Of a DNA stretch of 64,000 nucleotides, positions 2,474 through 40,509 are shown one piece after another. How positions within the stretch are numbered: position 1 is the first letter of the stretch; the number at the start of each line of letters is the position of its first letter. This stretch comes from a virus, in the IMG/VR virus record IMGVR_UViG_3300016484_000735, positions 14,418-78,417 of that record; one strand, 5' to 3'. The notes under the pieces are model-generated. The model did no database searches. It had not been told where the DNA came from and saw only the letters and a program-made list of their open reading frames with translations. Position numbers and translations under genes: made by a program.

Positions 2474-2526
2474 GAGGAACCTTGTGCTGTGATCCAGTAT
2501 TTACACTTAAGGGCGGATCTAGATTT

Positions 2527-2590
2527 TGTAACGACCTGAAGTTCGTTACAACTTCGACCATCAGAACTCCTGCGACCGTGTTATAGTACA
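2527..2590 (+). promoter_or_regulatory. Early cassette promoter with TGTAACGA-N8-TCGTTACA inverted repeat and TATAGT -10
   Basis: Perfect 8-bp IR 2527-2550; gtgttatagt upstream of ORF 2613. Confidence 0.7.
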
Positions 2591-2612
2591 TCTATCGACG
2601 CTGGAGAGCATC

Positions 2613-2849
2613 ATGAACGGTAAGCAAAAATTCCACAAGCCGAACGGCCCGGCCTTCAACTGCTGGGAACAGTGGCATGCCGCCGATGGTTCTGGTCGTG
2701 TCGTGGAGATCGACTCCGTCGTGAAGTTCGGAAACGAGAAGTTCGACTACGACGTCACGTACACGGACATCGCAACTGGCGAAACGCACACGAAGGACGC
2801 CTGGAACTTCCAAGTGAAATACTTCCACAGCGCCGACAAGAGCCTGTGA
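2613..2849 (+). CDS. Early hypothetical protein
   Basis: ORF track, GGAG RBS, own promoter. Confidence 0.7.
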   Translation: MNGKQKFHKPNGPAFNCWEQWHAADGSGRVVEIDSVVKFGNEKFDYDVTYTDIATGETHTKDAWNFQVKYFHSADKSL

Positions 2850-2917
2850 AGTACTTCACACCAGGACCTTGAGTTCTGGTGTTACAATGCATCATCAACG
2901 TTTTAGGGAGAACGAAG

Positions 2918-3154
2918 ATGGCCTCGAAAATGACCGCCGCTGCTGCGCTGACCTCTGCCACCGTGATCATTCGTGCTGAGCTGCAGAAGTGCGCCCGTGA
3001 AGCTCTCGAGCTGGAGCGGACTGGCGTCCTACCGGTCGGGATGATCCGCGAAGCCCAGCTGATCCTGATGGATGGCGGCCTCCCGAAGGATGTCGCGTTC
3101 AGCATCCTGCGGACCGAAGCGCTGCATGCGATCGCGTTCTCAGCTGAGAACTAA
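2918..3154 (+). CDS. Early hypothetical protein (start moved to MASKMTAA)
   Basis: GGGAG RBS before ATG 2918; TACAAT -10 upstream. Confidence 0.7.
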   Translation: MASKMTAAAALTSATVIIRAELQKCAREALELERTGVLPVGMIREAQLILMDGGLPKDVAFSILRTEALHAIAFSAEN

Positions 3155-3211
3155 TTCACACAAGAACCACGAGTTCTGTGGTATAGTTCAACCATCGTCA
3201 AGGAGAACGGC

Positions 3212-3547
3212 ATGTCGAACACCGCCACCGAAATCGAAGTCCTGGAACAGCGACTCGCCGAACTCAGGAAGCAGAAGGCGCAAGAGGAAAAGGCCGAAGT
3301 CAGCCTCACCCCGGCCCAGAAGATCGCGATCCGTCTGCACGATTCGCTCTGCTACCATGACCACTGCGGCCAATGCGGCTGGTTCTACGAGATCAGCGAC
3401 GGCGTGCACTCCTGGGGCCCTGGCACGACCCACGACGACTGGTGGCGCCGTGCGAACCAGTTCAAGAAGTTCGCCGAGGAACGGGAGATCGACGTCGAAG
3501 TCGGTCTGGGTTTCGTTGATGCCTTGCGGAAGGGGCGGGTGCTGTAA
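3212..3547 (+). CDS. Early hypothetical protein (coiled-coil N-terminus, CxHxxCxxCxW motif)
   Basis: AGGAG RBS; stop TAA embedded in TGTAAC repeat arm. Confidence 0.75.
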   Translation: MSNTATEIEVLEQRLAELRKQKAQEEKAEVSLTPAQKIAIRLHDSLCYHDHCGQCGWFYEISDGVHSWGPGTTHDDWWRRANQFKKFAEEREIDVEVGLGFVDALRKGRVL

Positions 3548-3610
3548 CAAGACGGTGGTCGTTACAACTTCGGCGTGTACAAGTTCTGCGAGCAGGATAT
3601 AGTACTACTC

Positions 3611-3844
3611 ATGAACACGAACACCACCTCCATCGAAGTCATGAAGCTCGTCGTGCTGCACGACGGTTGCTACGTTCGCGACTTCGGCAAGATCGCTTCG
3701 AAGAGCGTCCTCGTGCAGTACCTCGCGAACTCGATCCATCGCGATGGGAAGTTCGAACTCGCGATCGCTCGGATGACCGGTGAACTCGTGTCGTACCGTC
3801 TGCCACTCCCGAACGTCCTCCGTCGGACTCGGGTTCAGTTCTGA
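3611..3844 (+). CDS. Early hypothetical protein, probably leaderless (MNTNTT...)
   Basis: TATAGT 3598-3603, ATG 7 nt later, no SD. Confidence 0.7.
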   Translation: MNTNTTSIEVMKLVVLHDGCYVRDFGKIASKSVLVQYLANSIHRDGKFELAIARMTGELVSYRLPLPNVLRRTRVQF

Positions 3845-3855
3845 AAGGATTCAAG

Positions 3856-4119
3856 ATGCGTTGCCTCGTGTGGTTCTCATACGGTCGTCCTCGTGTGTTC
3901 GCCCTCCCGGACCTCCCGTCGTTCCAGAAAATCGTGATCGCCCTGCGCGCCGGCACCGCTGGCTGGGGCATCGAAGAAAAAGCGTTCGTCGCTCTCGAGA
4001 AAGCGATCCTCGGTGGATCGATGGTCGCCGCCGAGCGTCGAATCACCGAGTTCCTGAAGGAGCACGGTCTGAACGAGCATGAGATGTTCGAGGCGGCGCA
4101 GTTCATCCGCCTCGAGTGA
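3856..4119 (+). CDS. Early hypothetical protein
   Basis: ORF track; AAGGA RBS. Confidence 0.7.
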   Translation: MRCLVWFSYGRPRVFALPDLPSFQKIVIALRAGTAGWGIEEKAFVALEKAILGGSMVAAERRITEFLKEHGLNEHEMFEAAQFIRLE

Positions 4120-4123
4120 TCCA

Positions 4124-4159
4124 GTAACAGGACCCTGTTACGTAACAGGGTCCTGTTAC
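4124..4159. repeat. Perfect 36-bp palindrome made of two GTAAC-N8-GTTAC units
   Basis: gtaacaggaccctgttac|gtaacagggtcctgttac; second half is the exact reverse complement of the first. Confidence 0.95.
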
Positions 4160-4203
4160 AACTTCAGAGTGTACAAGTTCTGCAGGCGGGTTATAGTACA
4201 CAC

Positions 4204-4542
4204 ATGGACACGAACATCACCTTCGCCGAGTGGAAGATCCTGGAAGCCGAGCGTGCTCGGGAACTGAAGATCCTTCCGTTCCCGTCGTTCGAGAAGTTCT
4301 GTGAGGAGACCGGACGCACTGAGTACGAGGTCGTGATCCTCTCGGAAGAGCACGTTCGGTACCACCTGCCGCAGGTCCCGAAGCTCTGCACGAACTTCCT
4401 CTGGGAAGCTCACGACTTCGCCTCGAAGCTCTTCGAGTCCGAAGGTGTCCGCTGTGCCGTGTACCACCTCCGCACCGACGGCTACGTCGGAATCTACGAG
4501 CCGAAGCCGAAGCGGGATCGCCTCGGTCGTTTCTCGAAGTAA
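4204..4542 (+). CDS. Early hypothetical protein, probably leaderless
   Basis: TATAGT 4192-4197, ATG 6 nt later. Confidence 0.7.
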   Translation: MDTNITFAEWKILEAERARELKILPFPSFEKFCEETGRTEYEVVILSEEHVRYHLPQVPKLCTNFLWEAHDFASKLFESEGVRCAVYHLRTDGYVGIYEPKPKRDRLGRFSK

Positions 4543-4552
4543 GGAGATCACC

Positions 4553-4831
4553 ATGTACCTGGAAGCCAAGGATCTGAAGGTCGGTACCACGTACGAGTGC
4601 TTCGAGAACTGCACCCAGTGCCCGACGATCACCCTGATCCGTCCGGACCGAATCGAGATCGGTCGTGACAGAGTGACCCTGGTCGCCGGCGGAACCTCGT
4701 ACGAGTACACGACCTCGTACGGTCGGTTCAAGGAAGTTCCTCGGGAGATCCTCGAGGCGCGAATCCGCGGCCATCAACGGGTCATCGAGTCGGCGAAGCG
4801 GGAGATCGAGTTCCTCGAGTCCCTGCTGTAA
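4553..4831 (+). CDS. Early hypothetical protein (MYLEAKDLKVG...)
   Basis: AAGGAG RBS; stop TAA in TGTAAC arm. Confidence 0.75.
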   Translation: MYLEAKDLKVGTTYECFENCTQCPTITLIRPDRIEIGRDRVTLVAGGTSYEYTTSYGRFKEVPREILEARIRGHQRVIESAKREIEFLESLL

Positions 4832-4919
4832 CAAGTTCCGGCGGTTACAAATCGCCGATGCAGATCCTCGACGACCGTGTTATAGTAACACTATCGTCAA
4901 ACGAACTGGAACTACGAAC

Positions 4920-5267
4920 ATGAGCTCTCGTCTGGACCGTGCCTGGGCCGTTCTCCCCTGCGCCTGCATCTTCGGTGATCGCACTGCGGTCCCGATGATC
5001 GAGATCGCGAACGAATGGCCGGAAGGTCAGGTCCTCGTCGTGAAGGATCTGCGCACCGATCGCCTCCGCTTCTTCTGCTCGTGCGGAGACCTGGGTTACA
5101 AGGTCGGGCACCGTCAGGAAGCGTATCACGACCAGACCCTGAAGATCATCGGCGAGTTCGAGGTCCTGAACGTCGTGAACTACCGCACCGTGGACGGGAA
5201 GCCGGTGATGAACTCGGCGAACTCCGTCGGCCTCGACAAGAAGGCCCCGATTTACTGCTTCAAGTGA
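4920..5267 (+). CDS. Early hypothetical protein (FCSCGD motif)
   Basis: Cassette promoter and conserved leader upstream. Confidence 0.7.
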   Translation: MSSRLDRAWAVLPCACIFGDRTAVPMIEIANEWPEGQVLVVKDLRTDRLRFFCSCGDLGYKVGHRQEAYHDQTLKIIGEFEVLNVVNYRTVDGKPVMNSANSVGLDKKAPIYCFK

Positions 5268-5297
5268 TCCTCCGCTGAACCCTCTCGAAAGACGACC

Positions 5298-5510
5298 ATG
5301 GAACAAATCTCTTCGTACCTGATCACCCTGAACGTCGGTGCCGGCATCGCCCTGATGTGTGCCATGATCACCGGGTACGGCCTGGTCCTGGAGGTCGCGT
5401 CCGGCGACCTGAGCTCCCTGAAAGACCTCCGTTCGATGAACTGGTACCAAGCCGTTCTGGTCCTGGTGTTCCTGAGCTCCCTCGGGATCTTGTTCCTCCG
5501 AGTGGCGTAA
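5298..5510 (+). CDS. Small two-TM membrane protein
   Basis: Two hydrophobic stretches; stop TAA in GTAAC arm. Confidence 0.7.
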   Translation: MEQISSYLITLNVGAGIALMCAMITGYGLVLEVASGDLSSLKDLRSMNWYQAVLVLVFLSSLGILFLRVA

Positions 5511-5598
5511 CAAGTTCTTCGGTCGTTACGACTTCGGGGTGTACATCTTCGGCGACCGTGTTATAGTAACACTATCGTCAAACGAACTGGAGATCGAA

Positions 5599-5934
5599 AT
5601 GGGATTCCGTACCGTCGTCGTTCTGAACAATGACTACGCTCACGAGTGGGAGAACGACCCCGAGCTCGGCAAGAAGATCTTCCTGGCTGCCTCGGCTGCT
5701 CAGTTCGGCCGCGACGAGAGTCAGGCCCGTCGGATCCTGCCGTACGGCCAGGCCATCGAGCAGGTCCATGCGGACTGCCAGACCGTGGCGATCCTGGACG
5801 GGTACGGCGGGAAGGCCGTCGCGTACAGCCACGGCCGTCGTGCGCAGACCGACGAGGAACGAGACCTGGCCTGCCTGAAGGCCCTCGCCGAGAAGCTCGG
5901 GTACCGTGTTTCGAAGAAGCCGGTGAAGGGCTGA
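5599..5934 (+). CDS. Early hypothetical protein (MGFRTVVVL...)
   Basis: GGAG RBS in conserved leader; start moved to 5599. Confidence 0.75.
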   Translation: MGFRTVVVLNNDYAHEWENDPELGKKIFLAASAAQFGRDESQARRILPYGQAIEQVHADCQTVAILDGYGGKAVAYSHGRRAQTDEERDLACLKALAEKLGYRVSKKPVKG

Positions 5935-6036
5935 TCGTTACAACTTCGGAGTGTACAAGTTCTGCGAGCAGGATATAGTATACGAGTTCCACCACGACGA
6001 TGGCCTGAAGGTCCTTCGCATCACCCTGGTTCAGCA

Positions 6037-6336
6037 ATGAAAAACGACTTCCTCGGAAATTCCCTCGAGATCGGCGACCTGGTCGTGGTCCCGGCCCCGC
6101 AGTACCACCACCTCACGATCGCTCGTGTGTACGCGTTCACTCCGAAGGGAGCCCGAGTCGAGTTCCTGAACACCTGGAACTTCGATCCGAAGGATCCGCG
6201 GTACACCCAGTACCTCGCCGCCCCGTCGTACCTCACGAAGATCACGACTCCCACGGAAGCCTCGATCGCCGCGGCCGCCGCTCTGGACGCCGCTCGGGTC
6301 AAGAAGAACCTCCCGCCGATCAGCGAACTCTCGTAA
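6037..6336 (+). CDS. Early hypothetical protein (phage D.LG..L.IGD.V SH3-like motif)
   Basis: MKNDFLGNSLEIGDLVV; stop TAA in GTAAC arm. Confidence 0.7.
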   Translation: MKNDFLGNSLEIGDLVVVPAPQYHHLTIARVYAFTPKGARVEFLNTWNFDPKDPRYTQYLAAPSYLTKITTPTEASIAAAAALDAARVKKNLPPISELS

Positions 6337-6426
6337 CAAGTTCTTCGGACGTTACAATTCTCCGATGTACAAGTTCTGAAGGCGTGTTATAGTACACCTA
6401 TCGACACACGAACTGGAATCACGAAC

Positions 6427-6789
6427 ATGGAACAGATCCGCATCGCCCCCGTCGCCAAGGGTTACTTCGCCTCGATGAAGGTCACCCTGGCCGACATCGC
6501 CCGGAAGCGTCGTGCCGGTATCGCCGTGTTCGCTGAGCGTCACAATCCGGACGGCAGCATCACTCAGGTGTTCCTGATTCCGGAAGGCACCTCGATCAAG
6601 ACCAAGGAAGGCGAGTTCCTGGAGGCCGTGAACCTGAAGACGAAGCGCCCGTACGGCCAGCACCAGGTCCTGGCGAAGCTGAAGTTCTCGATGAAGCGAG
6701 GTTTCCTGGAGATCGACGGGATCGCCCCGGCGACCGCCGCGTACGCCGATGCTCTGGACCTGGAAGCCGTCGCGTTCGAAGTCGCTTGA
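6427..6789 (+). CDS. Early hypothetical protein
   Basis: Cassette promoter and leader upstream. Confidence 0.75.
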   Translation: MEQIRIAPVAKGYFASMKVTLADIARKRRAGIAVFAERHNPDGSITQVFLIPEGTSIKTKEGEFLEAVNLKTKRPYGQHQVLAKLKFSMKRGFLEIDGIAPATAAYADALDLEAVAFEVA

Positions 6790-6819
6790 AGAACAGAGAT
6801 CCTCTGAAGGAGTTACGCA

Positions 6820-7008
6820 ATGAAACACTCTGAGCACGAGTTCAAGGTCGATGACGTCGGTGCCCGCGGTCGCGTCACCGGTGACGAGTGGCTCGCTCTG
6901 TCCGCCGTGTTCGAGACGCTGTTCAGCGAAAGCCAGGCGAGCCAGAAGCCGGCTCTTGATCCTCTGACGATCGAGGTCCTTCAAGAGGACGACGGCGAGA
7001 TCGACTGA
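6820..7008 (+). CDS. Early hypothetical protein
   Basis: AAGGAG RBS. Confidence 0.6.
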   Translation: MKHSEHEFKVDDVGARGRVTGDEWLALSAVFETLFSESQASQKPALDPLTIEVLQEDDGEID

Positions 7009-7154
7009 GACGGAACACCAGTCCCAGGCAGTCCGCTCCCTGGCGGCGAACAGGGCGGCCGGTCGTTACAAGTTCTAGGCGTTACAACTTCGGGGTGTAC
7101 ATTCCACGTCGGCAGGTTATTATTCACCTATCGACAACGAACCGGAACATCGAA

Positions 7155-7439
7155 ATGTCCTTCAAGACCTGGTACAAGAAGCAAGTCACGACCTCGACGA
7201 AGTTCCGGAACACCGTGCTGGTCGTGGCAGCTCCCGTGGTGTACGGTGCCGCGATCGTCGCCTGTGTCTGGCACTGCCTGAAGGACATCGGATCGACGAT
7301 CGTCGACTCGGTCGTTCAGACGAAGAACACCGTGAGCGATGTGAACGCGTACTACCGCGCCGTGTTCTCCACGAAGGCCGGTGAGGAATACACCCCGCCG
7401 GCTGCGAACACCGTTCGTCCCGTTCGTTACGAGGACTGA
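7155..7439 (+). CDS. Early membrane-anchored hypothetical protein (MSFKTWY...)
   Basis: Conserved leader; one hydrophobic segment. Confidence 0.7.
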   Translation: MSFKTWYKKQVTTSTKFRNTVLVVAAPVVYGAAIVACVWHCLKDIGSTIVDSVVQTKNTVSDVNAYYRAVFSTKAGEEYTPPAANTVRPVRYED

Positions 7440-7493
7440 ACCGGTTACAACTTCAGAGTGTACAATCCCTAGGATCAGGTTATAGTACTACTC

Positions 7494-7691
7494 ATGAACA
7501 CGAACACGACCTTCACCACCACGTTCCTGACCCGCCACGATGGCATCGGCACGATTCACCAAGGTGTGATTCGCCGCCTGGAACACGGTGAGAACATCGT
7601 GTACGCCGTGATCGAATCGATCGACGAACGCAAGATGAAGCGTGTCGTCGCCAAGGAACTGAAGATCCTGAAAGCCAAGGAACAAGCATGA
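7494..7691 (+). CDS. Early hypothetical protein, probably leaderless (MNTNTT...)
   Basis: TATAGT 7481-7486, ATG 7 nt later. Confidence 0.7.
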   Translation: MNTNTTFTTTFLTRHDGIGTIHQGVIRRLEHGENIVYAVIESIDERKMKRVVAKELKILKAKEQA

Positions 7692-8071
7692 AGCCCCTGA
7701 AATTCTACTCCGGTGCCGATCTGCCCACCGCGAACCCTCGTGACTTCGACACCGTGTACGTGTACCGTCAAGGCATCGTTGAGTTCACCGGCACTCGGGA
7801 CGAGCACGAGCAGTTCGTGAGTGCGAACCCGGGCTCGAAGGACTGGGTCACCGAGTACGTTCGCGACGAGGATGCCCTGAAGGCAGCTCGTCAGAAGTAC
7901 ACGAAGGATCGTGCGACCCGGGCGGCCCAGTTCCTGAACGACCTCTCTCAAGAGAACGGCCTGCCGGTTTCGAAGATCTCGAAGATCCTGGAGCTGGCCG
8001 CGAATCTTGATCTGGACCCAGAACAGAAGGTCGAACTCGTCGAAGGGTTCGCGAAGATCTTCCGGAGCTGA
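7688..8071 (+). CDS. Early hypothetical protein
   Basis: ATGA overlap with upstream stop. Confidence 0.7.
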   Translation: MKPLKFYSGADLPTANPRDFDTVYVYRQGIVEFTGTRDEHEQFVSANPGSKDWVTEYVRDEDALKAARQKYTKDRATRAAQFLNDLSQENGLPVSKISKILELAANLDLDPEQKVELVEGFAKIFRS

Positions 8072-8073
8072 AC

Positions 8074-8244
8074 ATGAACGTGATCTTCCTGACCGAAGAC
8101 CGGATGCCGGAGACGATCTGGGTCGCCGCACCGGAAGTCGGTGATGTCCTGTCGATTCCGAACGATGGCGACGACGAACTGCAGTCGTACGTGATCGATT
8201 CGGTGAACCTCCCTCTGAACACCGTGTACGTGAGGAACCTCTGA
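8074..8244 (+). CDS. Small hypothetical protein, 56 aa, missing from ORF track (MNVIFLTEDRMPETIWVAAPEVGDVL...)
   Basis: Fills the gap exactly; TGA overlaps ATG of the next gene; phage-like codon use. Confidence 0.65.
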   Translation: MNVIFLTEDRMPETIWVAAPEVGDVLSIPNDGDDELQSYVIDSVNLPLNTVYVRNL

Positions 8245-8597
8245 TGAGCCCGACTCCGTCTGAAGTCACTTCCCTGGCCGTGAGCCTGAACCTGAAGATC
8301 GACGAGGTCCTGAAAGCGTTCGAGTTCGAGAAGGTCCGAAAGGTCATGGAATTCCTGGACTGGAAGTGGTCCACGAACTCCGGTTACCAGACTCCGGACG
8401 TCGCCGAACTCCGGAGAACGGCTCGACGTCTCCTGAACTCCACCGTGGAAAGGTGGTTCTTGCAGGGTCGTCCGGCGAGCGGGATGACGGTATCGACCGG
8501 TGGCCTCGTCGCCGAGATCGTCCTGTTCGCCGCCGACGAAGACCGCATGAATCCCAAGGTGGTCCTGACGTTCTACGTCGATCAGCGCGATGCCTGA
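8244..8597 (+). CDS. Early hypothetical protein (F.FEKV.KVM..L.W.W type phage family)
   Basis: Translationally coupled ORF. Confidence 0.7.
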   Translation: MSPTPSEVTSLAVSLNLKIDEVLKAFEFEKVRKVMEFLDWKWSTNSGYQTPDVAELRRTARRLLNSTVERWFLQGRPASGMTVSTGGLVAEIVLFAADEDRMNPKVVLTFYVDQRDA

Positions 8598-8607
8598 AGG
8601 AAACATC

Positions 8608-9075
8608 ATGATCCGCACCCTGTTCCTGATCCTCCTGTCCCTGTTCTCGCTGCCGTCGTTCGCCGGTATCAGTGATGCCGTGAACCTCACGATGTGCGCC
8701 GTCTCGTTCGATGCCGGTGATCCTCGTCGGGTGCAGTTCGCTCAGCGGGCATTCGACGCGATGCCGACCGACGTGTACGCTCAGAACCCGACGCTGCTCC
8801 CGGTCGGTGCCGATCCGAAGACCGCGGCGTACACGGCAGCCGTCGGGGCGAGCCGTCTGGAACTCGAGGAACGAACGGTGCAGTTCCTGAACGTGGAGGC
8901 GAACAAGAGGATCCGTTCGTTCGAGGCGTACAGCACCCTGCTCATGATCTCGAAGAAGGGTGCCTGGATCGTCGCGTACTCCCGGGCCGCCGGTGTCTCG
9001 CCGGCCGAGGCTGAACGAACCTGGGCTGATGGTGAACTCGCCGTTCGTCGTCAGTTCCAGCTGAACTGCAAGTGA
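8608..9075 (+). CDS. Exported hypothetical protein with signal peptide
   Basis: MIRTLFLILLSLFSLPSFA-G signal-peptide pattern. Confidence 0.7.
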   Translation: MIRTLFLILLSLFSLPSFAGISDAVNLTMCAVSFDAGDPRRVQFAQRAFDAMPTDVYAQNPTLLPVGADPKTAAYTAAVGASRLELEERTVQFLNVEANKRIRSFEAYSTLLMISKKGAWIVAYSRAAGVSPAEAERTWADGELAVRRQFQLNCK

Positions 9076-9144
9076 TCTGTGACGTAGTTCACACACGTTC
9101 TCGAAGTTCTGGTGTACAATGTTTCATCGTTACGGGAGAACACT

Positions 9145-9357
9145 ATGGCACTGTCGTTCGTCTCTTTCGTCCTGAAGAACGTCGTGATGCAGAACCTCGT
9201 GGTTCTGTGGATCCTGCTCACGGCGATCCTGTTCCTGGCCCTGGGCCGCGGTGAGACCCTCACGATCAGCGTACTGTTCGCGATGTACCTCAGCGGGGCG
9301 GTGTGTTCCGCTCTGGGCCTGACGAAGCTGTTCATCCGGTGCCTGATGCCAGAGTAA
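9145..9357 (+). CDS. Small multi-TM membrane protein
   Basis: GGGAG RBS; hydrophobic; TACAAT -10 upstream. Confidence 0.65.
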   Translation: MALSFVSFVLKNVVMQNLVVLWILLTAILFLALGRGETLTISVLFAMYLSGAVCSALGLTKLFIRCLMPE

Positions 9358-9411
9358 AAATTCCGAAAGTTTCCGTGCCTGGGCTCGAAGTTCCGGTGTA
9401 TAATGGATCTC

Positions 9412-9594
9412 ATGAACATCCTGAAGTCCTGCCCGGTTCTGTCGTTCATCGCGATCGTCCTGATCTCGACGTTCCTGACCTCGCTGTCCGTGAACCCGGA
9501 AGCCGGTGCCGCCGTGTTCGTGATCGAAGTCATGCTGTCCCTGATCGGCACGATCACGATGATGTTCGTCTCCCTGCTGACCTCGAAGAGCTAA
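9412..9594 (+). CDS. Small two-TM membrane protein, probably leaderless
   Basis: TATAAT 9399-9404, ATG 7 nt later. Confidence 0.65.
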   Translation: MNILKSCPVLSFIAIVLISTFLTSLSVNPEAGAAVFVIEVMLSLIGTITMMFVSLLTSKS

Positions 9595-9597
9595 GCC

Positions 9598-9876
9598 ATG
9601 AACACCCTTGAACAGGTCCGTTCCGCCCTCGTCGCCAAGGCCGTTGATGCCACTGAGCTCCGCCTGGCACCGTTCGAGGAGAAGTTCTACGTTCGACACA
9701 CCTCGGAGACCGGTGAGGGCGTTCTGATCTCGGTCCGGAAGACCGACGGTCTGAATGAACTCCTGGTGTACGGTGTCTCCCTGAAGCAGAACGCTGGGTT
9801 CACGCAGTACCTGAAGTTCGCCGGCACTCCCGAGACCCTGGCTGAAGAACTCGTGGCCTCGTTCGCCGCGTACTAA
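9598..9876 (+). CDS. Early hypothetical protein
   Basis: ORF track; codon bias. Confidence 0.7.
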   Translation: MNTLEQVRSALVAKAVDATELRLAPFEEKFYVRHTSETGEGVLISVRKTDGLNELLVYGVSLKQNAGFTQYLKFAGTPETLAEELVASFAAY

Positions 9877-9954
9877 AAATCCACAAGTTCCGATGTACAA
9901 GTTCTGAGGGCGTGTTATAGTACACCTATCGACACACGAACCGGAACCGCGAAC

Positions 9955-10287
9955 ATGAACATGGACTTCTTCGAACTGCAGGCCCTGTCCCAAATGCAGG
10001 CCTCCTTCAAGAACACGAAGGAGTTCAACGGAGTTCGGGTGGTGATGGTCGATCACGTTGACCAGTACCGTGAAGACTTCAAGGTCACCGTGTACGGTGA
10101 AGGCGAGTACTGGGACCTGGAGATCACGATCCTCGAAGGTCAGATCCTGATCAGCGGGTTCGAGGACGAGTCGGTCGTGGGTTCTGGCACGATCGCTCTG
10201 AAGTACCGTGAAGGCGAGAAGTCCTGTAACACCGTCGCCCGCTGCCTGTCCCGGATCGCCGAAGAGATCGAGTTCCGGTCGAACTGA
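9955..10287 (+). CDS. Early hypothetical protein
   Basis: Cassette promoter and leader upstream. Confidence 0.7.
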   Translation: MNMDFFELQALSQMQASFKNTKEFNGVRVVMVDHVDQYREDFKVTVYGEGEYWDLEITILEGQILISGFEDESVVGSGTIALKYREGEKSCNTVARCLSRIAEEIEFRSN

Positions 10288-10382
10288 TACATCCATCAGA
10301 ACTTCGTTACACTTCACCAGTGTACAAGTTCTGAGGGCATGTTATAGTAACACTATCGACACACGAACCGGAGCTACGAACC

Positions 10383-10628
10383 ATGAACGCCAAGAACCTG
10401 CACGCCGCTCTGTCTGCCCACACCGACACCCGTCACCTGGTTCTGCACGTGCTGCCGCTGCAAGGCGAGAAGTTCTATGTTCGTGTGATCGGCAAGACCG
10501 AAGTGGTTCGTGTGAAGATCACCGTCGGTGACAGCATCCAGTACGTCGCCGAGACCACCAAGAAGGGTGACGTCACCGGCACCGCCAAGGATCTGAACGA
10601 GCTGAAGTCGTTCCTGATGAAGCTCTGA
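10383..10628 (+). CDS. Early hypothetical protein
   Basis: Cassette promoter and leader with GGAG. Confidence 0.7.
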   Translation: MNAKNLHAALSAHTDTRHLVLHVLPLQGEKFYVRVIGKTEVVRVKITVGDSIQYVAETTKKGDVTGTAKDLNELKSFLMKL

Positions 10629-10749
10629 TCGTTACAACCTCCGGAGATCGTTACACTTTCACTGAACCTGAATCCTCGAACCGTGTTATAGTAACACTGT
10701 CGACAACGACATCAACCACCCTCCAGCACTTCGTCAAAGGAACACCACC

Positions 10750-11301
10750 ATGACCGCTACCGCCACCGTCCTGTCCCTGATCCCCAGCACCCGCGCCATG
10801 ATCTCCGGCACGAAGACCACGCTGTTCGACGCCGCTGTGGCCCTCGGCACCGGTCGTGTCACCGTCGCCCTGCGCGACAACGGCGAGAAGATCAACGGTA
10901 CCCTGGTGTTCATCGGCGGTGACGTCGGCGAGGTCGGCAGCACGGTGAACGCCCTGAACGCCCGGAACAAGGCGAAGTACGGCACGCACCTGATCCTGGG
11001 CACCGTGGACCTGGTGGTCCAAGAAACCGAAGGTGATCCCCTGGTCGCGATCTCCGACGTGAACGCCGACATCGACGTCGACCTGAACACCAAGGCCGCT
11101 CTGTTCACCGTCGCCGACACCAGCACCGTGTCCGCCGAGACCGTGACCGTCGTGAAGGCCAAGGACGGCACCGTCGTCGCCGCTGACGTCACCGTCGAGA
11201 CCGCCGAACTCCTGATCGCCAAGGCCAAGGCCGGCAAGCAAGCTGCCCTGAAGATCGCCAGCTCCACCGACCTCCTGATCGCCGAAGCCGTCGAGGCCTG
11301 A
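10750..11301 (+). CDS. Early hypothetical protein, beta-rich, strongly biased codons
   Basis: AAAGGA RBS; followed by a terminator-like hairpin. Confidence 0.75.
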   Translation: MTATATVLSLIPSTRAMISGTKTTLFDAAVALGTGRVTVALRDNGEKINGTLVFIGGDVGEVGSTVNALNARNKAKYGTHLILGTVDLVVQETEGDPLVAISDVNADIDVDLNTKAALFTVADTSTVSAETVTVVKAKDGTVVAADVTVETAELLIAKAKAGKQAALKIASSTDLLIAEAVEA

Positions 11302-11328
11302 TCCCCGACCGCCGGTTACGACCGGCCA

Positions 11329-11366
11329 GAAACACCCAGCGCCGTTACAGGTTCTGGGTGTTTTCG
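11329..11366 (+). terminator. Rho-independent terminator-like hairpin
   Basis: aaacacccag...ctgggtgttt followed by a T-rich tract. Confidence 0.6.
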
Positions 11367-11372
11367 TTTCTG

Positions 11373-11644
11373 AGTTCTTGTGGTACAATGATTCATCATC
11401 TGGAGAACTGAACCATGAAGAACTTCATCAAGGCTCTGATCGAACGTCTGACGAAGATCTCTCCCGCCGTCGGTGCTGCTCGCATCGAGGCTGAACTCGC
11501 TCGCCGTCAGGCAGCGTTCGTTCAAGAACTGCGTTCGAAGGTGCTGTAACGGATCCGTTACGATAAAGGTGCGTCCAAAGAACCTGAACTGAAGTTCTTG
11601 TGGTACAATGATTCATCATCTGGAGAACTGAGCCATGAAGAACT
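11373..11644 (+). repeat. 52-bp direct repeat (11373-11424 / 11593-11644, 1 mismatch) = promoter, RBS and MKN start
   Basis: agttcttgtggtacaatgattcatcatctggagaactga[a/g]ccatgaagaact; 220-bp period. Confidence 0.95.
11415..11549 (+). CDS. 44-aa basic amphipathic peptide missing from ORF track (MKNFIKALIERLTKISPAVGAARIEAELARRQAAFVQELRSKVL)
   Basis: Own promoter and GGAG RBS; stop TAA within perfect palindrome gtaacggatccgttac (11546-11561). Confidence 0.75.
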   Translation: MKNFIKALIERLTKISPAVGAARIEAELARRQAAFVQELRSKVL

Positions 11645-11886
11645 GGAACCTGATTCGCTCGAAGCAGACCTTCAACGAGTTCACCACCGCTCTGCGTCAC
11701 AACATCGAACGCGACGGCCCGGTTCTGGTCGAACTGCGGGATGGCACGAAGGTCGTCGTTCAGAACGGCACGCCCGAAGAACTTCTGGAGAACCAGATCG
11801 CGTTCCGGACCCGGGACTTCCGGCGGATCTGGAATGCCGATGGTTCGTCGGTGACCTCCGAGAACCTCGACATCATCGAGTTCTGA
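11635..11886 (+). CDS. Early hypothetical protein
   Basis: Second copy of the promoter/RBS repeat upstream. Confidence 0.75.
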   Translation: MKNWNLIRSKQTFNEFTTALRHNIERDGPVLVELRDGTKVVVQNGTPEELLENQIAFRTRDFRRIWNADGSSVTSENLDIIEF

Positions 11887-11914
11887 ACACCCACGACGAA
11901 CTAGGAACCACATC

Positions 11915-12316
11915 ATGATCAAGGCGCCTCGCACCGCTCAAGGTTTCACGATGATCGAACTGATCGTCGCGATCGTTCTGATCGGTGTCCTCGCCGCAGT
12001 GTCCGTCCCGCGTTTCCTTGACGCGAAGCCGAACGCGCAGAGCGCCATCAAGAGCCACGTGATCTCGGTGATTCGTACCGGAGACGCGATGAACAACTCG
12101 ATTCGATACGCCACGAACTACACGATGGGCGTTCGAACCTTCGGGATGCCGTGTAACTTCGTGATTCCGAGCGTCGTTCAGTCCGGCAAGCTTCCGCCCG
12201 GCTTCATCATCTACGCCGGCATCATCGTGACCGGGAACGTCGGTGAAACGTTCAACTGCCAGATGCGAGGTCCGGACAACGTGAATTTCACGGTGCCGAT
12301 CACGATCGTGATGTAA
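11915..12316 (+). CDS. Type IV pilin-like protein (prepilin N-terminal cleavage/methylation motif)
   Basis: K..R..QG|FTMIELIVAIVLIGVLAAVSVPRF: G-1/F+1, E+5, P+22 class III signal; two C-terminal Cys. Confidence 0.9.
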   Translation: MIKAPRTAQGFTMIELIVAIVLIGVLAAVSVPRFLDAKPNAQSAIKSHVISVIRTGDAMNNSIRYATNYTMGVRTFGMPCNFVIPSVVQSGKLPPGFIIYAGIIVTGNVGETFNCQMRGPDNVNFTVPITIVM

Positions 12317-12329
12317 CACCACCGCGACG

Positions 12330-12382
12330 AATACAGCATTAGGTGCTGAATAAAAACGAAGGGACTCATCCGAGTCCTTTTT
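12330..12382 (+). terminator. Conserved 3' element copy A (AATACAGCATTAGGTGCT) plus terminator hairpin
   Basis: 18-nt identity to copies at 27129 (+) and 53108 (-); aagggactc-atcc-gagtccttt then T tract. Confidence 0.75.
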
Positions 12383-12597
12383 GGGCTTTCCGCACACCGG
12401 GCTGATACTCTGTTCAGGCCAAGGAATTCCGCCCCAGGGACCGCTCAGAACGCTCCGCTTCCGACACTCGTAGTGTAAGATCCACCCCGCTTTTGACGGT
12501 CCCTGGCGCCGCCCTCCGGACTCTGTAACAGCTCAAAAAGCCGAACACTCGTCGAAGTTCTGGTGTATAATGATTCATCAACGAACTGGAGATCGAG

Positions 12598-12927
12598 ATG
12601 ACCGAAGCGAACCGTGGTACCGAGATCATGAACCTGTTCCCGGCAGCGTTCTACGCCACGAAGTCGACCTCGATGAACAGCGTCGAGTTCAGCACTGTGG
12701 GCGAGAACGAAGTGAGCTTCACCTGCACGTGCTCGAACACCGGACGTCCGCTGATCGTCACCATCAAGATCAACGTCGATAACTTCGCGATCGCCAAGAT
12801 CCAGAACGGCAAGAACATCCACACCGCAGGCTTCGTGCCGGCTCGTGTGATCACTCAAGAAGTCGTTGAAGACCTGGTGATGGCGATCAGCAATCAGATC
12901 GACGAGATGTTCTTCCTGGAGATCTGA
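12598..12927 (+). CDS. Early hypothetical protein, paralogue 1
   Basis: MTEANRGTEIMNLFPAAFYATKSTSMNSVEF; near-identical N-terminus to next gene. Confidence 0.8.
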   Translation: MTEANRGTEIMNLFPAAFYATKSTSMNSVEFSTVGENEVSFTCTCSNTGRPLIVTIKINVDNFAIAKIQNGKNIHTAGFVPARVITQEVVEDLVMAISNQIDEMFFLEI

Positions 12928-12991
12928 TCAAGAGCCGAACACGCGACGAAGTTCTGGTGTATAATGAACCATGAACGAACTGGAGATCGAG

Positions 12992-13315
12992 ATGACTGAA
13001 CAGAACCGCGGCACTGAGTTCATGAACCTGTTCCCGACCGCGTTCTACTCCACGAAGACGACCTCGATGAACAGCGTCGAGTTCCAAGTCACGAACGAGG
13101 ACAAGGTCACGTTCACCTGCACGTCCTCGCACACCGGACGACCGGTCCTCGTCACGATCGAGTTCGGTAAGAACTTCGCCGTCGTCACCGCCTTCGATGG
13201 CACGAACGCCGATCGTGCAGCACCGGTGTTCGCTCCGGTGATCACGCTCGCCTCGGTCGAAATGCTCGTCGAGAGCATCAGCGACCTGATCGAGAACCTG
13301 TTCTACCGGTTCTGA
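12992..13315 (+). CDS. Early hypothetical protein, paralogue 2
   Basis: MTEQNRGTEFMNLFPTAFYSTKTTSMNSVEF; duplicated promoter/RBS; start set by analogy. Confidence 0.8.
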   Translation: MTEQNRGTEFMNLFPTAFYSTKTTSMNSVEFQVTNEDKVTFTCTSSHTGRPVLVTIEFGKNFAVVTAFDGTNADRAAPVFAPVITLASVEMLVESISDLIENLFYRF

Positions 13316-13696
13316 TCAAGAACCGATCGGGAACTCGAGCCGCATCGTCTCGGTCAAGTTCAACCGAAGGTAAGTGAGATCGATGATCGCCACGATCGCG
13401 TTGTTGTCCGGCAGAGCCAGAACGACCAGCTCGTCCAGCTGAACTCGAGGTTCAGCGGCGATCACAGTCCGGAGCTGCGATTCGATCGTCGACACGGTAT
13501 CCTCGTCCAACGGTTCGAACGCCATCATCGGAATCGTCGTGCCGAAGTCCGGGTTCATCGGACGCTCGCCCTTGATCGTCCAGATCGCGTTCAGCAGATC
13601 TCGCTTCACGGTCTCGATTCCAGAAGTTCCGAACGATCGGTCCTTGCGCTCCAGTTGAGAAGCGGTGCTGAACCCACGATAGATCATCTTAGCCAT
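13316..13696 (-). CDS. gp25: Baseplate wedge subunit gp25-like
   Basis: MAKMIYRGFST...VKRDLLNAIWTIKGERPMNPDFGTTI...IAAEPRVQL = GPW/gp25 family signature. Confidence 0.9.
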   Translation of the reverse strand: MAKMIYRGFSTASQLERKDRSFGTSGIETVKRDLLNAIWTIKGERPMNPDFGTTIPMMAFEPLDEDTVSTIESQLRTVIAAEPRVQLDELVVLALPDNNAIVAIIDLTYLRLNLTETMRLEFPIGS

Positions 13697-13703
13697 TTTA
13701 CCC

Positions 13704-14813
13704 TCACTTCTTCCAATGTGCGCCTCGCGGCGAGGACGAGATTGGTCGCTCCCACGGTTCGTGCTGAGGCACGATCGTCGGTGCAGTAGCACACGCCGCC
13801 TCTGCTGCACTCGGTCCGTTCAAGTGAATCGCACTCCCGGTCGCCAACAGGTTCCCACTCGCCAAGAAGTTCATCGCCGCACCTGAAGTGATGTTCACTC
13901 CGGCACCCGTCACTCCCAACGATCCACAAGCAGTCAGTCGAGCGTCACCACCAGCCAGCAGGTTCAGAGTCGTCCCAGCGCTGATGTTCACCGATCCGCT
14001 CGCCGCCAGGTTCAGATTCCCACCAGCAGCGATCGACACGGACTCAGCAGCGAACAGGTGCACGTGCCCGTCCTTGTCGATCTCGAGGTACGCCTGCCCA
14101 CCAGCCACTGACAAGTAGATCCGTTCGTTCGCATCGTCGAAGATGATCTGATGACCCTCTGCCGTCTTGAACCGCAACCGACTGTTCGCTGGGTTATCCT
14201 GCATCAGGATCGCGTGCCGACCAGGAGTCGTGATGCAGAACGTCTGTGACTCCAACTCGCCAACACCCTTCGTCCCTACCGGCACAGTCCGCGTCTGATA
14301 CCCCTCAGTACTGTTCTTCTCATCCGCGGGTTGTGCTGCCTGTCGTTCGTACGCACCACGCGTCTGAGCGATCGACGAACTCAGATCACCGAACTGTGCC
14401 TTCAGGTTCGAAGCAGCAGGTTCCAGAACCCCACCAGAATCAGTCGTCAGATTCCCAGCACCATCGTTCCGACCCACCGGCAACGACCGGTTCCCGTGCT
14501 CTCGGAACACCGACCCGATGTACACCCGCTGGTTGTAGTCACCGTACAGGAACATCACCAGCACCTGCGCACCGATCTTCGGAATCGCCCAGAACCCGTA
14601 CGACACCGGTCCATCAGACACTCCACCGCCACCACCCGGATAACTGTACGCCTGCCCAGCGAACGGCGACATGTACACCGCCCACGGCAACGTCTCAACA
14701 TCAGAGATCACATCACCATCGATCGCCGGACACCACACGCGCAGACGACCCATCTCCTGTGGATCGCTCGTATCGACCACGATCCCTTCAACAACGAACG
14801 GCGCATCAATCAT
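13704..14813 (-). CDS. gp5: Baseplate central spike, gp5/VgrG-like (OB-fold plus beta-helix, no lysozyme)
   Basis: GIVVDTSDPQEMGRLRVWCP, P.IG..V.V.F..GD, TAEGHQIIFDD repeats. Confidence 0.8.
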   Translation of the reverse strand: MIDAPFVVEGIVVDTSDPQEMGRLRVWCPAIDGDVISDVETLPWAVYMSPFAGQAYSYPGGGGGVSDGPVSYGFWAIPKIGAQVLVMFLYGDYNQRVYIGSVFREHGNRSLPVGRNDGAGNLTTDSGGVLEPAASNLKAQFGDLSSSIAQTRGAYERQAAQPADEKNSTEGYQTRTVPVGTKGVGELESQTFCITTPGRHAILMQDNPANSRLRFKTAEGHQIIFDDANERIYLSVAGGQAYLEIDKDGHVHLFAAESVSIAAGGNLNLAASGSVNISAGTTLNLLAGGDARLTACGSLGVTGAGVNITSGAAMNFLASGNLLATGSAIHLNGPSAAEAACATAPTIVPQHEPWERPISSSPRGAHWKK

Positions 14814-21346: not shown

Positions 21347-22054
21347 CTAGTCTAGGTACTTGATTGTCCAACCTTCGACGCGCGAGATACGCTTCTTCGA
21401 TGTGACCACGCCGTTCTCGGTCTTCAGAGCAGCTCTGAATGCCGTGAGCGGGTACTTCGACTCTGCACACCACGCAGTGAGGTCATCAACGATGAAGACC
21501 TTCCCGGACGATGAGGTTACCTCGTACTTTCGATTCTTCGCTGCCCAGGTCTTTGCCATACTTTCCGGTGAGCGGGTACGGTCTTTCTTTGACCAAGTAG
21601 AGCGCCATTTCTGATGTCGTTCTTCGCTCCACTTCTTACCAAAGTTCGGATTGTTCTCACCGCTGTTCAACTCACTCAACAATGCCTTTGTCTCATCAGA
21701 CATCGACCACCCGTCATCACCACCATGACGAGCATTCATCAGAATACCTCCTTCTGGAAGAATACCAAAGTGCTTCGTCAGAATGCGTTCGGTCGCGAAC
21801 GCTGTCACTTCATCGCCTTCATAGACAGTGATCACCGGGAGAGTCCTGTATCCAAGGCTCTTCATCCCAAGCAACCAGCGATCGATGATCTGACCTGAGT
21901 AAGACGAGAGCTCATCATTCAAGAATGATACAATGCCTAGTGGGCGTTCAGGACGCCCCTTCCCAACGTAAGCCGGTTGATGGTCGAATACTCCGAATGG
22001 ATGCTCGAACTTGCCTGGTTTCCGTGGATCAAGTACAACGTATGTGATGAACAT
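21347..22054 (-). mobile_element. Free-standing GIY-YIG (LEM-3-like) homing endonuclease with NUMOD3 repeats
   Basis: YVVLDPRKPG...YVGKGRPER; SDETKALLSELNSGENNPNFGKKWSEE; antisense insertion between gp47 and gp46; TAAATA at 22076-22081 (-). Confidence 0.75.
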
Positions 22055-39566: not shown

Positions 39567-40445
39567 ATGGCTCGCACATACTCAATCGCACAGGTCCAAC
39601 AGTCCGGCGCCGCTGGCGTGCCGGGCCGCATCATTCTGGATGCCTCAGCCGGTGACCTCGTCTCCTCGTTTCAAGGGAAGTTCTATCGTAACGAAGCCGG
39701 CGCGACGCTTCCGTTCAACACCGCGCTGTCGACGACCGGGTACACGCTGATTCAGGCGACGACGTTCACCGTAATCGGGAACACATCGTACAACGGCACG
39801 TACACCGTGTACACCGCCGCAACATCGATCGACCTGAACCCGTCGTCGGAGTTCAATGGCACCCAGACCGAGATCCTGGTGAACGAGCTGATCTCGGCTC
39901 CGTCAGTCGTGGGTGATGATGTTGGCGTCGGTTCGGTCACGAATATCTCCACGTACCTGCTGAAGATCACTGGTGAGAGCGATCTCCTCGTTCCACCGGC
40001 GGTGACGTTCACGAACCGCCCGATGGACGTGATCGGGCGGAACGGTTCGCCATGGGGTGAGTCGTTCATGCAGAACTTTCTCGAGCTCGCTCAGAACTCG
40101 GCTGGTACTGCTGCTCCGGTGAACCCGTACCTTGGGCAAACCTGGTACGACAACGGCACGAACGCACTGAAGCTGAACAGCACTGCTGGCTGGGTCACGA
40201 TCGCCTCTGGTGTGCCGAACTCGAACACCACGTACCGCTCGGCTGTTCAGACCGGGAATTCGTGGGTGATCAACCACAACATGGGGCTGCCGGCTCCGTA
40301 CGTGGCTCTGATCCAAGTGTTCGTGGATGTTGGCGGCGGTTCGTACAAGATGATCATCCCAAGCGACATCACGTTCGTCTCTGCGAACCAGACCGTGATC
40401 ACGTTCACTTCCTCCGTCACGGGGATCGTCCTGATGCGAATGTAA
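39567..40445 (+). CDS. Virion structural protein (fibre/baseplate-associated)
   Basis: Late promoter 39537-39542; WGE..MQNFL.L..N, P..PYLGQTWYD, W.INHN.G motifs. Confidence 0.65.
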   Translation: MARTYSIAQVQQSGAAGVPGRIILDASAGDLVSSFQGKFYRNEAGATLPFNTALSTTGYTLIQATTFTVIGNTSYNGTYTVYTAATSIDLNPSSEFNGTQTEILVNELISAPSVVGDDVGVGSVTNISTYLLKITGESDLLVPPAVTFTNRPMDVIGRNGSPWGESFMQNFLELAQNSAGTAAPVNPYLGQTWYDNGTNALKLNSTAGWVTIASGVPNSNTTYRSAVQTGNSWVINHNMGLPAPYVALIQVFVDVGGGSYKMIIPSDITFVSANQTVITFTSSVTGIVLMRM

Positions 40446-40509
40446 CGAAGAACCGTTCGTTACACTTTAGCTGTTTACAGTCGCCTAGGTTGTGGTATAG
40501 TACAACCTA
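40441..40509 (+). promoter_or_regulatory. Early-type promoter with TGTAACGAA-N6-TTCGTTACA repeat, TTTACA -35 and TGTGG-TATAGT -10
   Basis: Same inverted repeat as the early cassettes; ATG 7 nt after -10. Confidence 0.75.

Follow-up and report, generated by a model that had tools for sequence, protein, structure and literature searches.

A candidate PeSL-like cassette array between baseplate genes of a T4-superfamily jumbo phage

Promoter-early stem-loop (PeSL) cassettes have been described in the T4-type phages RB49/phi1, T4/PST and KVP40/nt-1 (Arbiol 2010; Comeau 2014; PMC2839356, PMC4122927). In nt-1, a second promoter class, PmSL, plays the same role (PMC2839356, PMC4122927). PeSL shuffling is already known from T4-type phages, and the locus described here extends it to a distant, GC-rich jumbo lineage. 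Our reading of this locus is that PeSL-like regulatory cassettes, shuffled at their repeats, fill a hyperplastic region in the genome of a T4-superfamily jumbo phage; we give this reading a probability of about 0.75.

The comparison with PeSL is apt because the phage, an uncultured giant (jumbo) phage, belongs to the T4 superfamily. It encodes homologues of the T4 portal, gp5-like, gp25-like, wedge, sheath and gp46/47 proteins. Its closest cultured relative is Ralstonia phage RsoM2USA, with a portal identity of 51%. The GC content is 57%, in contrast to 42% in RsoM2USA. The viral record comprises 135 kb and is 43% complete; the window is the whole 64,000-nucleotide stretch of it that was analysed.

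An array of 30 small genes

Between a large baseplate wedge gene and a gp25-like baseplate gene lie 30 small genes, all on the + strand and within positions 2613-13315 (Table 1). The stop codon of the gp25-like gene abuts that of gene 30. The two baseplate genes lie 10.8 kb apart here. In ten more distant relatives they are neighbours or nearly so, with gaps from 31 bp up to 2.2 kb, and for this reason we regard the array as a hyperplastic region. In the baseplate loci of eight of the ten, none of the 30 array proteins was found. Megablast of the array region against GenBank phages gave no match, and metagenome contigs scanned with the gp25-like protein yielded matches at 34% identity only. 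A NUMOD3 homing-endonuclease-like gene lies near the array.

The original prediction spoke of about 30 orphan ORFs. The number is right: an independent gene caller, run on an ENA contig (identical to the window across the 20,381 bases fetched), returned the same 30 products. The word orphan is nearly so. No PHROG match (E <= 0.01) exists for 24 of the genes, five hit families without an assigned function (one only weakly), and gene 28 is pilin-like. Precomputed Pfam matches cover two of the 30 (DUF7205, N_methyl), and an Rfam search across the array at E <= 0.1 found nothing. Besides the pilin mimic, the accessory genes of the block include several small membrane proteins. GC3 ranges from 0.73 to 0.91, except in gene 26 (0.62). 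Because the genes are not paralogues, apart from 29 and 30 (56% amino acid identity), gene duplication was rejected as the source of the repeated upstream sequences.

Table 1. Coordinates of the array, its flanks, its promoter modules and the segments missing from the close relative
Feature	Position	Strand	Remarks
Left flank, large baseplate wedge protein, 1191 aa	2..2473	-	phrog_10646, E 1e-176; 3' part beyond window
Late-type TAAATA motif of left flank	2503		
Hyperplastic array	2521..13315	+	30 small genes in 20 promoter-led units
Class A, gene 1	2528..2612	+	hairpin 2528-2549, -10 2582-2587
Class B, gene 2	2846..2917	+	14-nt palindrome 2846-2859, -10 2883-2888
Class B, gene 3	3144..3211	+	-10 3182-3187
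Class A, gene 4	3544..3610	+	hairpin, -35 3576-3581, -10 3598-3603, ATG 7 nt past -10, leaderless type
Class A, gene 6	4124..4203	+	two tandem 18-nt hairpins, -10 4192-4197, ATG 6 nt past -10
Class A, gene 8	4828..4919	+	gene 7 stop within hairpin, weak -35, -10 4881-4886
Class A, gene 10	5507..5598	+	gene 9 stop within hairpin; left partner of 826-bp event
Missing in relative, genes 10-11, 826 bp	5593..6418	+	junction in leader common to modules 10/12
Class A, gene 11	5937..6036	+	atypical 57-nt leader
Class A, gene 12	6333..6426	+	gene 11 stop within hairpin; right partner of 826-bp event
Class A, gene 14	7065..7154	+	-10 TATTAT, GTTACA element duplicated
Class A, gene 15	7444..7493	+	leaderless type; heads 5-gene operon 15-19
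Class B, gene 20	9077..9144	+	
Missing in relative, genes 20-21, ~0.45 kb	9148..9595	+	edges are two start codons
Class B, gene 21	9384..9404	+	
Class A, gene 23	9878..9954	+	no GTTACA element; left partner of 427-bp event
Missing in relative, gene 23, 427 bp	9910..10336	+	junction inside modules 23/24, exact edges ambiguous within repeat
Class A, gene 24	10306..10382	+	right partner of 427-bp event
Class A, gene 25	10631..10749	+	two GTTACA elements, no -35, -10 10687-10692
Class B, gene 26	11373..11424	+	one copy of 52-bp pair (1 mismatch)
Class B, gene 27	11593..11644	+	other copy of 52-bp pair; site of breaks in Logan contigs
Tandem unit 1, class B module and gene 29	12536..12929	+	
Missing in relative, gene 29, 394 bp	12603..12996	+	switch within 21 nt common to two class B leaders
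Tandem unit 2, class B module and gene 30	12930..13323	+	
Right flank, gp25-like baseplate protein, 126 aa	13316..13696	-	PF04965
gp5-like baseplate hub	13704..14813	-	Pfam Phage_base_V, PHROG
Isolated class A	40442..40508	+	hairpin, promoter, leaderless ATG; before 400-aa photolyase-like gene

Two classes of promoter module

The array holds 12 class A and eight class B modules, which together occupy roughly 19% of it. A module directly precedes 20 of the 30 genes, in agreement with the predicted two-thirds. The companion statement that each small gene carries its own module does not hold: the remaining ten lie in 2- to 5-gene operons behind one, so that a single unit precedes one to five small accessory genes. 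Four pairs of near-identical repeats had also been listed, and all have precisely the lengths and mismatch counts given: 6362-6429/9890-9957 (68 bp, 4 mismatches), 3559-3604/5935-5980 (46 bp, 1 mismatch), 4872-4910/5553-5591 (39 bp, 0 mismatches) and 11373-11424/11593-11644 (52 bp, 1 mismatch).

Class A modules begin with a hairpin, TGTAAC..GTTACA, continue with the promoter TGTACA-N16-TATAGT and end in a conserved leader. The spacer is 16 nt, often with TG-n before the TATAGT -10, and the element upstream of the -35 is GTTACAACTTC, which is not AT-rich. Downstream of the -10, some units have a conserved leader of 31-34 nt with GGAG/GGAA ahead of the ATG, and in others the ATG itself stands 6-7 nt past the -10. 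The second form, found in three units of the array and two elsewhere, implies a leaderless mRNA. In most units GGAG/GGAA stands 7-10 nt upstream of the ATG. Class B modules read AGTTCT-N4-TAYAAT and have no -35 element.

GTTACA-N9-TGTACA-N16-TATAGT (<=3 mismatches) matches the window ten times, always on the + strand, and never in 100 shuffles. Across the 135-kb record TATAGT occurs 19 times on the + strand and once on the - strand, and nhmmer profiling recovers 22 class A copies, all on +. A sigma-70 scan gave nine TGTACA-16-TATAGT/TATTAT sites versus 2.9 +/- 1.5 expected.

Within the array, six of the 12 class A modules carry the hairpin, and the stop codon of the preceding gene often lies in its 5' arm. 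Its 5-bp core is invariant, the inner stem varies with compensating changes, and folding energies run from -4 to -11 kcal/mol. The record contains 14 matches to GTAAC-N3-20-GTTAC versus 0.5 expected. Twelve of them directly abut a class A promoter; the other two are the upstream member of the gene 6 tandem pair and one upstream of the gene 27 class B promoter. The stems lack a trailing U-tract, and the record shows no excess of terminator-like sites (10 vs 8.7 expected), so the sequence gives no support to the terminator half of PeSL.

T4-type late TAAATA motifs precede the structural genes, and none occurs within the array. Class B modules were considered as late promoters and rejected, as the late genes use TAAATA. 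The isolated class A module before the photolyase-like gene suggests that the module is the general non-late promoter type of this phage. An nhmmer search of the loci of eleven distant relatives and 200 kb of RsoM2USA found no arrays, with one clear RsoM2USA copy at 186184. Pattern scans of IMG/VR returned one true module and one chance match.

Gains, losses and mosaic copies

A close relative is represented by contigs in five Logan runs (SRR34434918/19/28/29/39) at 86-95% nucleotide identity. In the flanking baseplate genes it is colinear with this phage over ~7 kb, but within the array at least six gene-level gains or losses separate the two. The relative lacks genes 10-11, 20-21, 23 and 29 and carries two genes missing here, of 133 and 72 amino acids. 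In place of genes 10-11, 23 and 29, it has in each case a chimeric module whose junction lies in register within the flanking repeats; at the gene 10/12 junction the exact homology is just ~10 nt. Where this phage has genes 20-21, the relative joins the gene 20 class B module straight to the ATG of gene 22. This event and that of the 72-aa gene, two of the six, have their edges at start or stop codons, outside the repeats. One junction lies at a hairpin edge: the relative has an extra 449-bp cassette at 2527/2528, exactly at the 5' edge of the gene 1 hairpin. In the gene 2 module, ~17 nt just past the -10 differ and the protein is identical.

Two of these arrangements recur: the single copy of 29/30 is present in three runs, and two runs have the gene 23 event. 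Three assemblies of the genotype studied here are identical and thus give no sign of rearrangement within the population.

The module copies themselves are mosaic. The upstream part of module 4 matches module 11 (97%) and its downstream part module 15 (100%). The hairpin of module 10 matches module 12 (94%) and its downstream part module 8 (100%). The PHI statistic on the copies is 1.676 vs 1.813 +/- 0.035 (p = 0.0005).

The original prediction had proposed that recombination between copies excises, duplicates or reorders cassettes, for example through a 3528-bp circle between 6362 and 9890, and so makes a putative host-takeover library, with gene order in related genomes as a check. The close relative shows the opposite of a fixed order and content. 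Because its array content differs, the junctions lie inside modules and the copies are mosaic, the recombination reading is supported. On this evidence, directly repeated modules act as homology patches. An exchange between two of them deletes the intervening DNA and leaves one chimeric module, and the reverse reaction or an unequal exchange inserts or duplicates a cassette. Such exchange also renders the copies mosaic. It may be carried out by the phage's own recombination system, given the homologues of T4 gp46 and gp47, possibly through circular intermediates like the mini-circles that arise when neighbouring PeSL elements recombine. Host RNA polymerase probably reads the modules, early or mid infection.

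Alternative readings and known systems

Could selection alone account for the repeats? They would then be promoters and leaders kept alike by their function, with genes turned over by illegitimate recombination or homing endonucleases and modules that happen to sit at gene borders. One module is ~82% conserved over 60 nt in a phage contig of 46% GC, and RsoM2USA has one module of the same layout, so selection by itself can keep copies alike. The two events with edges outside repeats fit this account, as does the NUMOD3 gene nearby. Random breaks, however, would almost never yield three events in which both ends stay in register and a chimeric module results, and the spacer sequence is common to copies in block-wise, conflicting pairings. 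We therefore consider selection without exchange unlikely.

Still less probable, in our judgement, is that the TGTAAC..GTTACA hairpin is the target of a dedicated recombination or nicking enzyme, with the head of the array by the wedge gene as the preferred point of entry. The invariant core and compensated inner stem would suit such a site. The hairpin at 2528 comes first in the array, where no gene lies upstream that it could terminate, and the relative's extra cassette sits exactly at its 5' edge. If true, this would be an integron-like system moving self-expressed cassettes in a phage. Against it, the three clean junctions fall in the promoter/leader part rather than in the hairpin, and a search of the 135-kb record (43% complete) for an IntI-type tyrosine recombinase (PF00589) gave no match. 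The GTTACAA of the array also departs from the attC core, RYYYAAC/GTTRRRY, in having C where R is needed. An assembly artefact in the relative is the least credible explanation. The 52-bp repeat does interrupt Logan contigs, yet short-read de Bruijn assemblers stop at repeats instead of joining across them. The junctions recur in independent runs, and the relative is 5-13% diverged and has two genes absent here. Shuffling of cassettes at their repeats is the reading that we prefer.

The evidence for shuffling comes from natural variation in metagenomes, not from laboratory strains. Annotation of non-late genes in these phages can draw on the module as a ready promoter/leader model. The block marks accessory genes with fast turnover, which are natural candidates for host-interaction or anti-defence screens.

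Among known systems, integron attC cassettes likewise line up as single small genes in an array, with imperfect inverted repeats at their borders and a content that differs between close relatives. They differ in that the units here have their own promoters and the junctions lie in the promoter/leader. An integron reading was rejected on the missing integrase, the core mismatch and the promoter in every unit. The T4 transcription programme shares sigma-70-like promoters before accessory genes and a TAAATA-type late motif before structural genes, whereas no MotA-box middle promoters were recognised in this phage. In contrast to PeSL, this array sits in a distant GC-rich jumbo lineage outside the Tevenvirinae. 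The stem has an invariant TGTAAC/GTTACA core, often with the upstream stop, where PeSL stems are G-run/C-run. An AT-rich upstream tract and a U-tract are both absent, a 16-nt spacer separates the TGTACA -35 from the -10, and the start follows a conserved leader or is leaderless. In both, a composite of stem-loop, sigma-70-like promoter, Shine-Dalgarno and ATG is repeated before small ORFan genes. These elements cluster where hyperplastic regions separate conserved core genes, and indels between close relatives leave chimeric elements behind.

A promoter-bearing gene array

The array (genes 1-30) occupies 2613-13315 with 30 plus-strand genes of high third-position GC. An independent gene caller, applied to an ENA contig, gave the same 30 products, in line with the original prediction of about 30 genes. 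The four long near-identical repeat pairs in that prediction are exact. Its claim that each gene carries its own upstream module holds for 20 of the 30, and the remaining 10 are downstream members of two- to five-gene operons.

Two classes of module are found. The 12 class A copies in the array give an ungapped alignment between GTTACA and the -10 box, with GTTACA at -49, TGTACA at -34, a 16-nt spacer, often TG-n, and then TATAGT. A 43-nt class A pattern, allowing up to three mismatches, matched 10 times, on the plus strand only, versus 0 in shuffles. A profile search of the record returned 22 copies, also on the plus strand only; TATAGT itself occurs 19 times on the plus strand and once on the minus. 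Class B (8 copies) consists of AGTTCT-N4-TAYAAT and has no -35. Isolated class A modules stand elsewhere in the record ahead of an RNA ligase and other non-structural genes, which argues that class A is the general non-late promoter type of this phage, densest in the array. Gene 1 (2613-2849) has a distant paralogue (record 129712-129936; 33% amino acid identity, E 5e-4) that is likewise behind a class A module, namely the copy conserved in other phages. Gene 28 (11915-12316) has a type IV pilin-like N-terminus (G/FTMIELIV..), matches PHROG 'pilin' and Pfam N_methyl, and is kept in the close relative described below.

GTTACA forms the 3' arm of an inverted repeat, GTAAC-N3-20-GTTAC, observed 14 times in the record versus 0.5 expected. 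Of these 14 hairpins, 12 sit immediately against a class A promoter, another forms the upstream half of a tandem pair at gene 6, and the last lies upstream of the gene 27 class B promoter. The 5-bp core is invariant, while the inner stem varies among copies with compensating changes. In several units the preceding gene ends at the TAA within the 5' arm. The stems lack a trailing U-tract, and there is no enrichment of terminator-like sites. Only two strong terminators were seen in the array (Table). Ahead of three class B promoters, a palindrome of a separate type, GTGAAGTACTTCAC, overlaps the upstream stop codon; it may serve as an operator or form a small RNA hairpin.

In most units the class A leader is a conserved 31-34 nt ending in GGAG/GGAA and then ATG. 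The ATG lies only 6-7 nt past the -10 in five cases: genes 4, 6 and 15, a photolyase-like gene at 40509 and, beyond the window, a 388-aa gene. The mRNAs of these five are therefore predicted to be leaderless. Their first codons (MNTNT/MDTNI) mimic the ACGAAC repeats normally found in the leader. The photolyase-like N-terminus belongs to a 400-aa protein (40509-41711) with its own class A module amid the structural gene block.

The window (GC ~57%) covers bases 14418-78417 of an IMG/VR virus record of 135,176 bp with a CheckV completeness of 43%. Among the products of the window are a T4-type portal (PF07230, E 2e-90), a gp5-like hub, a tail sheath, a large baseplate wedge protein and T4 gp46 and gp47 homologues. 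The nearest cultured phage is Ralstonia phage RsoM2USA (344 kb; portal identity 51%). Structural genes have a T4-late-like (A)TAAATA motif 25-60 nt upstream, suggesting a late programme of the gp55 type. The motif is absent from both strands of 2521-13315. Between the gp47-like and gp46-like genes, on the opposite strand, is a NUMOD3 (homing-endonuclease-type) gene (21347-22054).

Gains and losses between two baseplate genes

The array occupies a hyperplastic site and is flanked by a gp25-like gene (13316-13696) and a wedge gene (ending at 2473), both on the minus strand and thus opposite in orientation to it. Seven IMG/VR relatives, with wedge proteins of 66-79% amino acid identity, have 31 bp to 2.2 kb between these genes; the gap is 165 bp in RsoM2USA and, in one ENA contig, 1.6 kb. 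At an eighth IMG/VR locus it is ~1 kb; that contig holds only the first 375 wedge residues, 79% identical. Gap cargo is unrelated between one relative and the next. A search of the eight IMG/VR loci recovered none of the 30 array proteins, and only one of the 30 is matched, weakly, within the first 200 kb of RsoM2USA. Two independent contigs of a 61%-identity relative (L042 and L043; Logan SRR11245132/33) both stop 61 nt past the gp25-like gene; a repeat-rich insert may likewise sit at this junction in that relative.

Contigs of a close relative were found in five Logan runs by cluster and exact-sequence look-ups. Both flanks are colinear with gaps of a few bases only: on the left, L044 1-3147 matches the wedge gene at 93.0%, and on the right, L048 matches at 93.4% across gene 30 and then the gp25-like, gp5-like and following genes. 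The array itself differs in at least six places (Table), as expected from the proposal that gene content varies among relatives. The extra unit in the relative is made up of GTTACA, a class-B-like promoter and an ORFan of 133 aa, with the stop codon of the ORFan inside GTAAC.

Features of the array and its surroundings (window positions unless stated; differences are in the close relative)
Feature	Position	Detail
Class A promoters with short -10-to-ATG distance	3598-3613, 4192-4206, 7481-7496, 40496-40511; record 97422-97436	
(A)TAAATA motifs	2503, 19523, 23849, 28883, 34498, 39536, 43713, 50508, 56016, 56732, 60541	
Palindrome type	2846-2859, 3147-3160, 9080-9095	
Intrinsic terminator	12350-12380	clear GC stem + T-run, after pilin gene (gene 28)
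Second strong terminator	~11340-11372	ahead of gene 26
Difference 1	2527/2528	extra 449-bp unit, exactly at 5' edge of first hairpin
Difference 2		genes 10-11 absent, 826 bp removed; module 10 through leader joined to end of module 12 leader and gene 12
Difference 3		genes 20-21 absent; gene 20 class B promoter joined to gene 22 ATG
Difference 4		72-aa membrane protein gene after gene 22; no homologue in this record
Difference 5		gene 23 absent, 427 bp missing; junction inside modules 23/24
Difference 6		single copy of 29/30 pair, 394 bp missing

The single 29/30 copy matches unit 1 (module and gene 29) in its upstream region, promoter and leader (93-98%), and unit 2 (module and gene 30) in its coding part (94-100%). 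The switch point falls inside a 21-nt stretch common to both leaders. Since the gene 29 and gene 30 proteins are only 56% identical, the duplication is old, and gene 29 was most likely lost from the relative. At gene 2, ~17 nt just past the -10 differ between the phages while the protein is identical; the version of this stretch in the window phage resembles other class B leaders, which suggests conversion. The single-copy 29/30 arrangement recurs in three runs, two runs show the gene 23 event, and the contig for genes 10-11 also occurs in a second place. Three assemblies of the window genotype are identical over the array, with no within-population rearrangement seen. Breaks in Logan contigs at the 52-bp repeat are an assembler effect.

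Mosaic modules and known cassette systems

Compared segment by segment, the class A copies give conflicting identities. The upstream part of module 4 pairs with module 11 (97%), its downstream part with module 15 (100%). The module 10 hairpin pairs with module 12 (94%) and its downstream part with module 8 (100%), and module 12 downstream pairs with module 23 (100%). A PHI-type test on 18 copies gave 1.676 versus 1.813 +/- 0.035 (2000 permutations, p = 0.0005). This mosaic pattern fits exchange among copies, and block-wise selection could contribute. A class A-like module at record 129629-129688 is 82% conserved over 60 nt in L021 (10827-10885), a phage contig of 46% GC, and the L021 copy and the one here (GC 57%) share an identical 15-nt spacer. 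The L021 contig has no protein similarity to this record, and the neighbouring genes have no detectable homology. RsoM2USA (GC 42%) has a module of the same layout at 186184-186262. Conservation across phages of such different GC argues that the promoter type is old and under selection, and the argument from module similarity alone is thereby weakened.

The invariant hairpin and the insertion at a hairpin edge prompted an integron-like reading, which fails on integrase (no PF00589 match in the record, 43% complete), core sequence and junction position. Promoter-early stem-loops (PeSLs) are composite stem-loop and early-promoter units concentrated in hyperplastic regions of T4-type phages, where their recombination deletes or swaps ORFans, with mini-circles formed in RB49 and phi1 (PMC2839356). 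Later work added T4/PST and KVP40/nt-1, where there is also a second, middle-promoter class (PMC4122927). The literature searched treats PeSLs for T4-like phages only, with nothing relevant linking jumbo phage, hyperplastic and promoter. The array shares the sequence-testable features of PeSLs except the AT-rich tract, which it lacks, and a terminator role for its stems is unsupported. Judged from sequence, we file the array with the PeSL systems, in a distant lineage.
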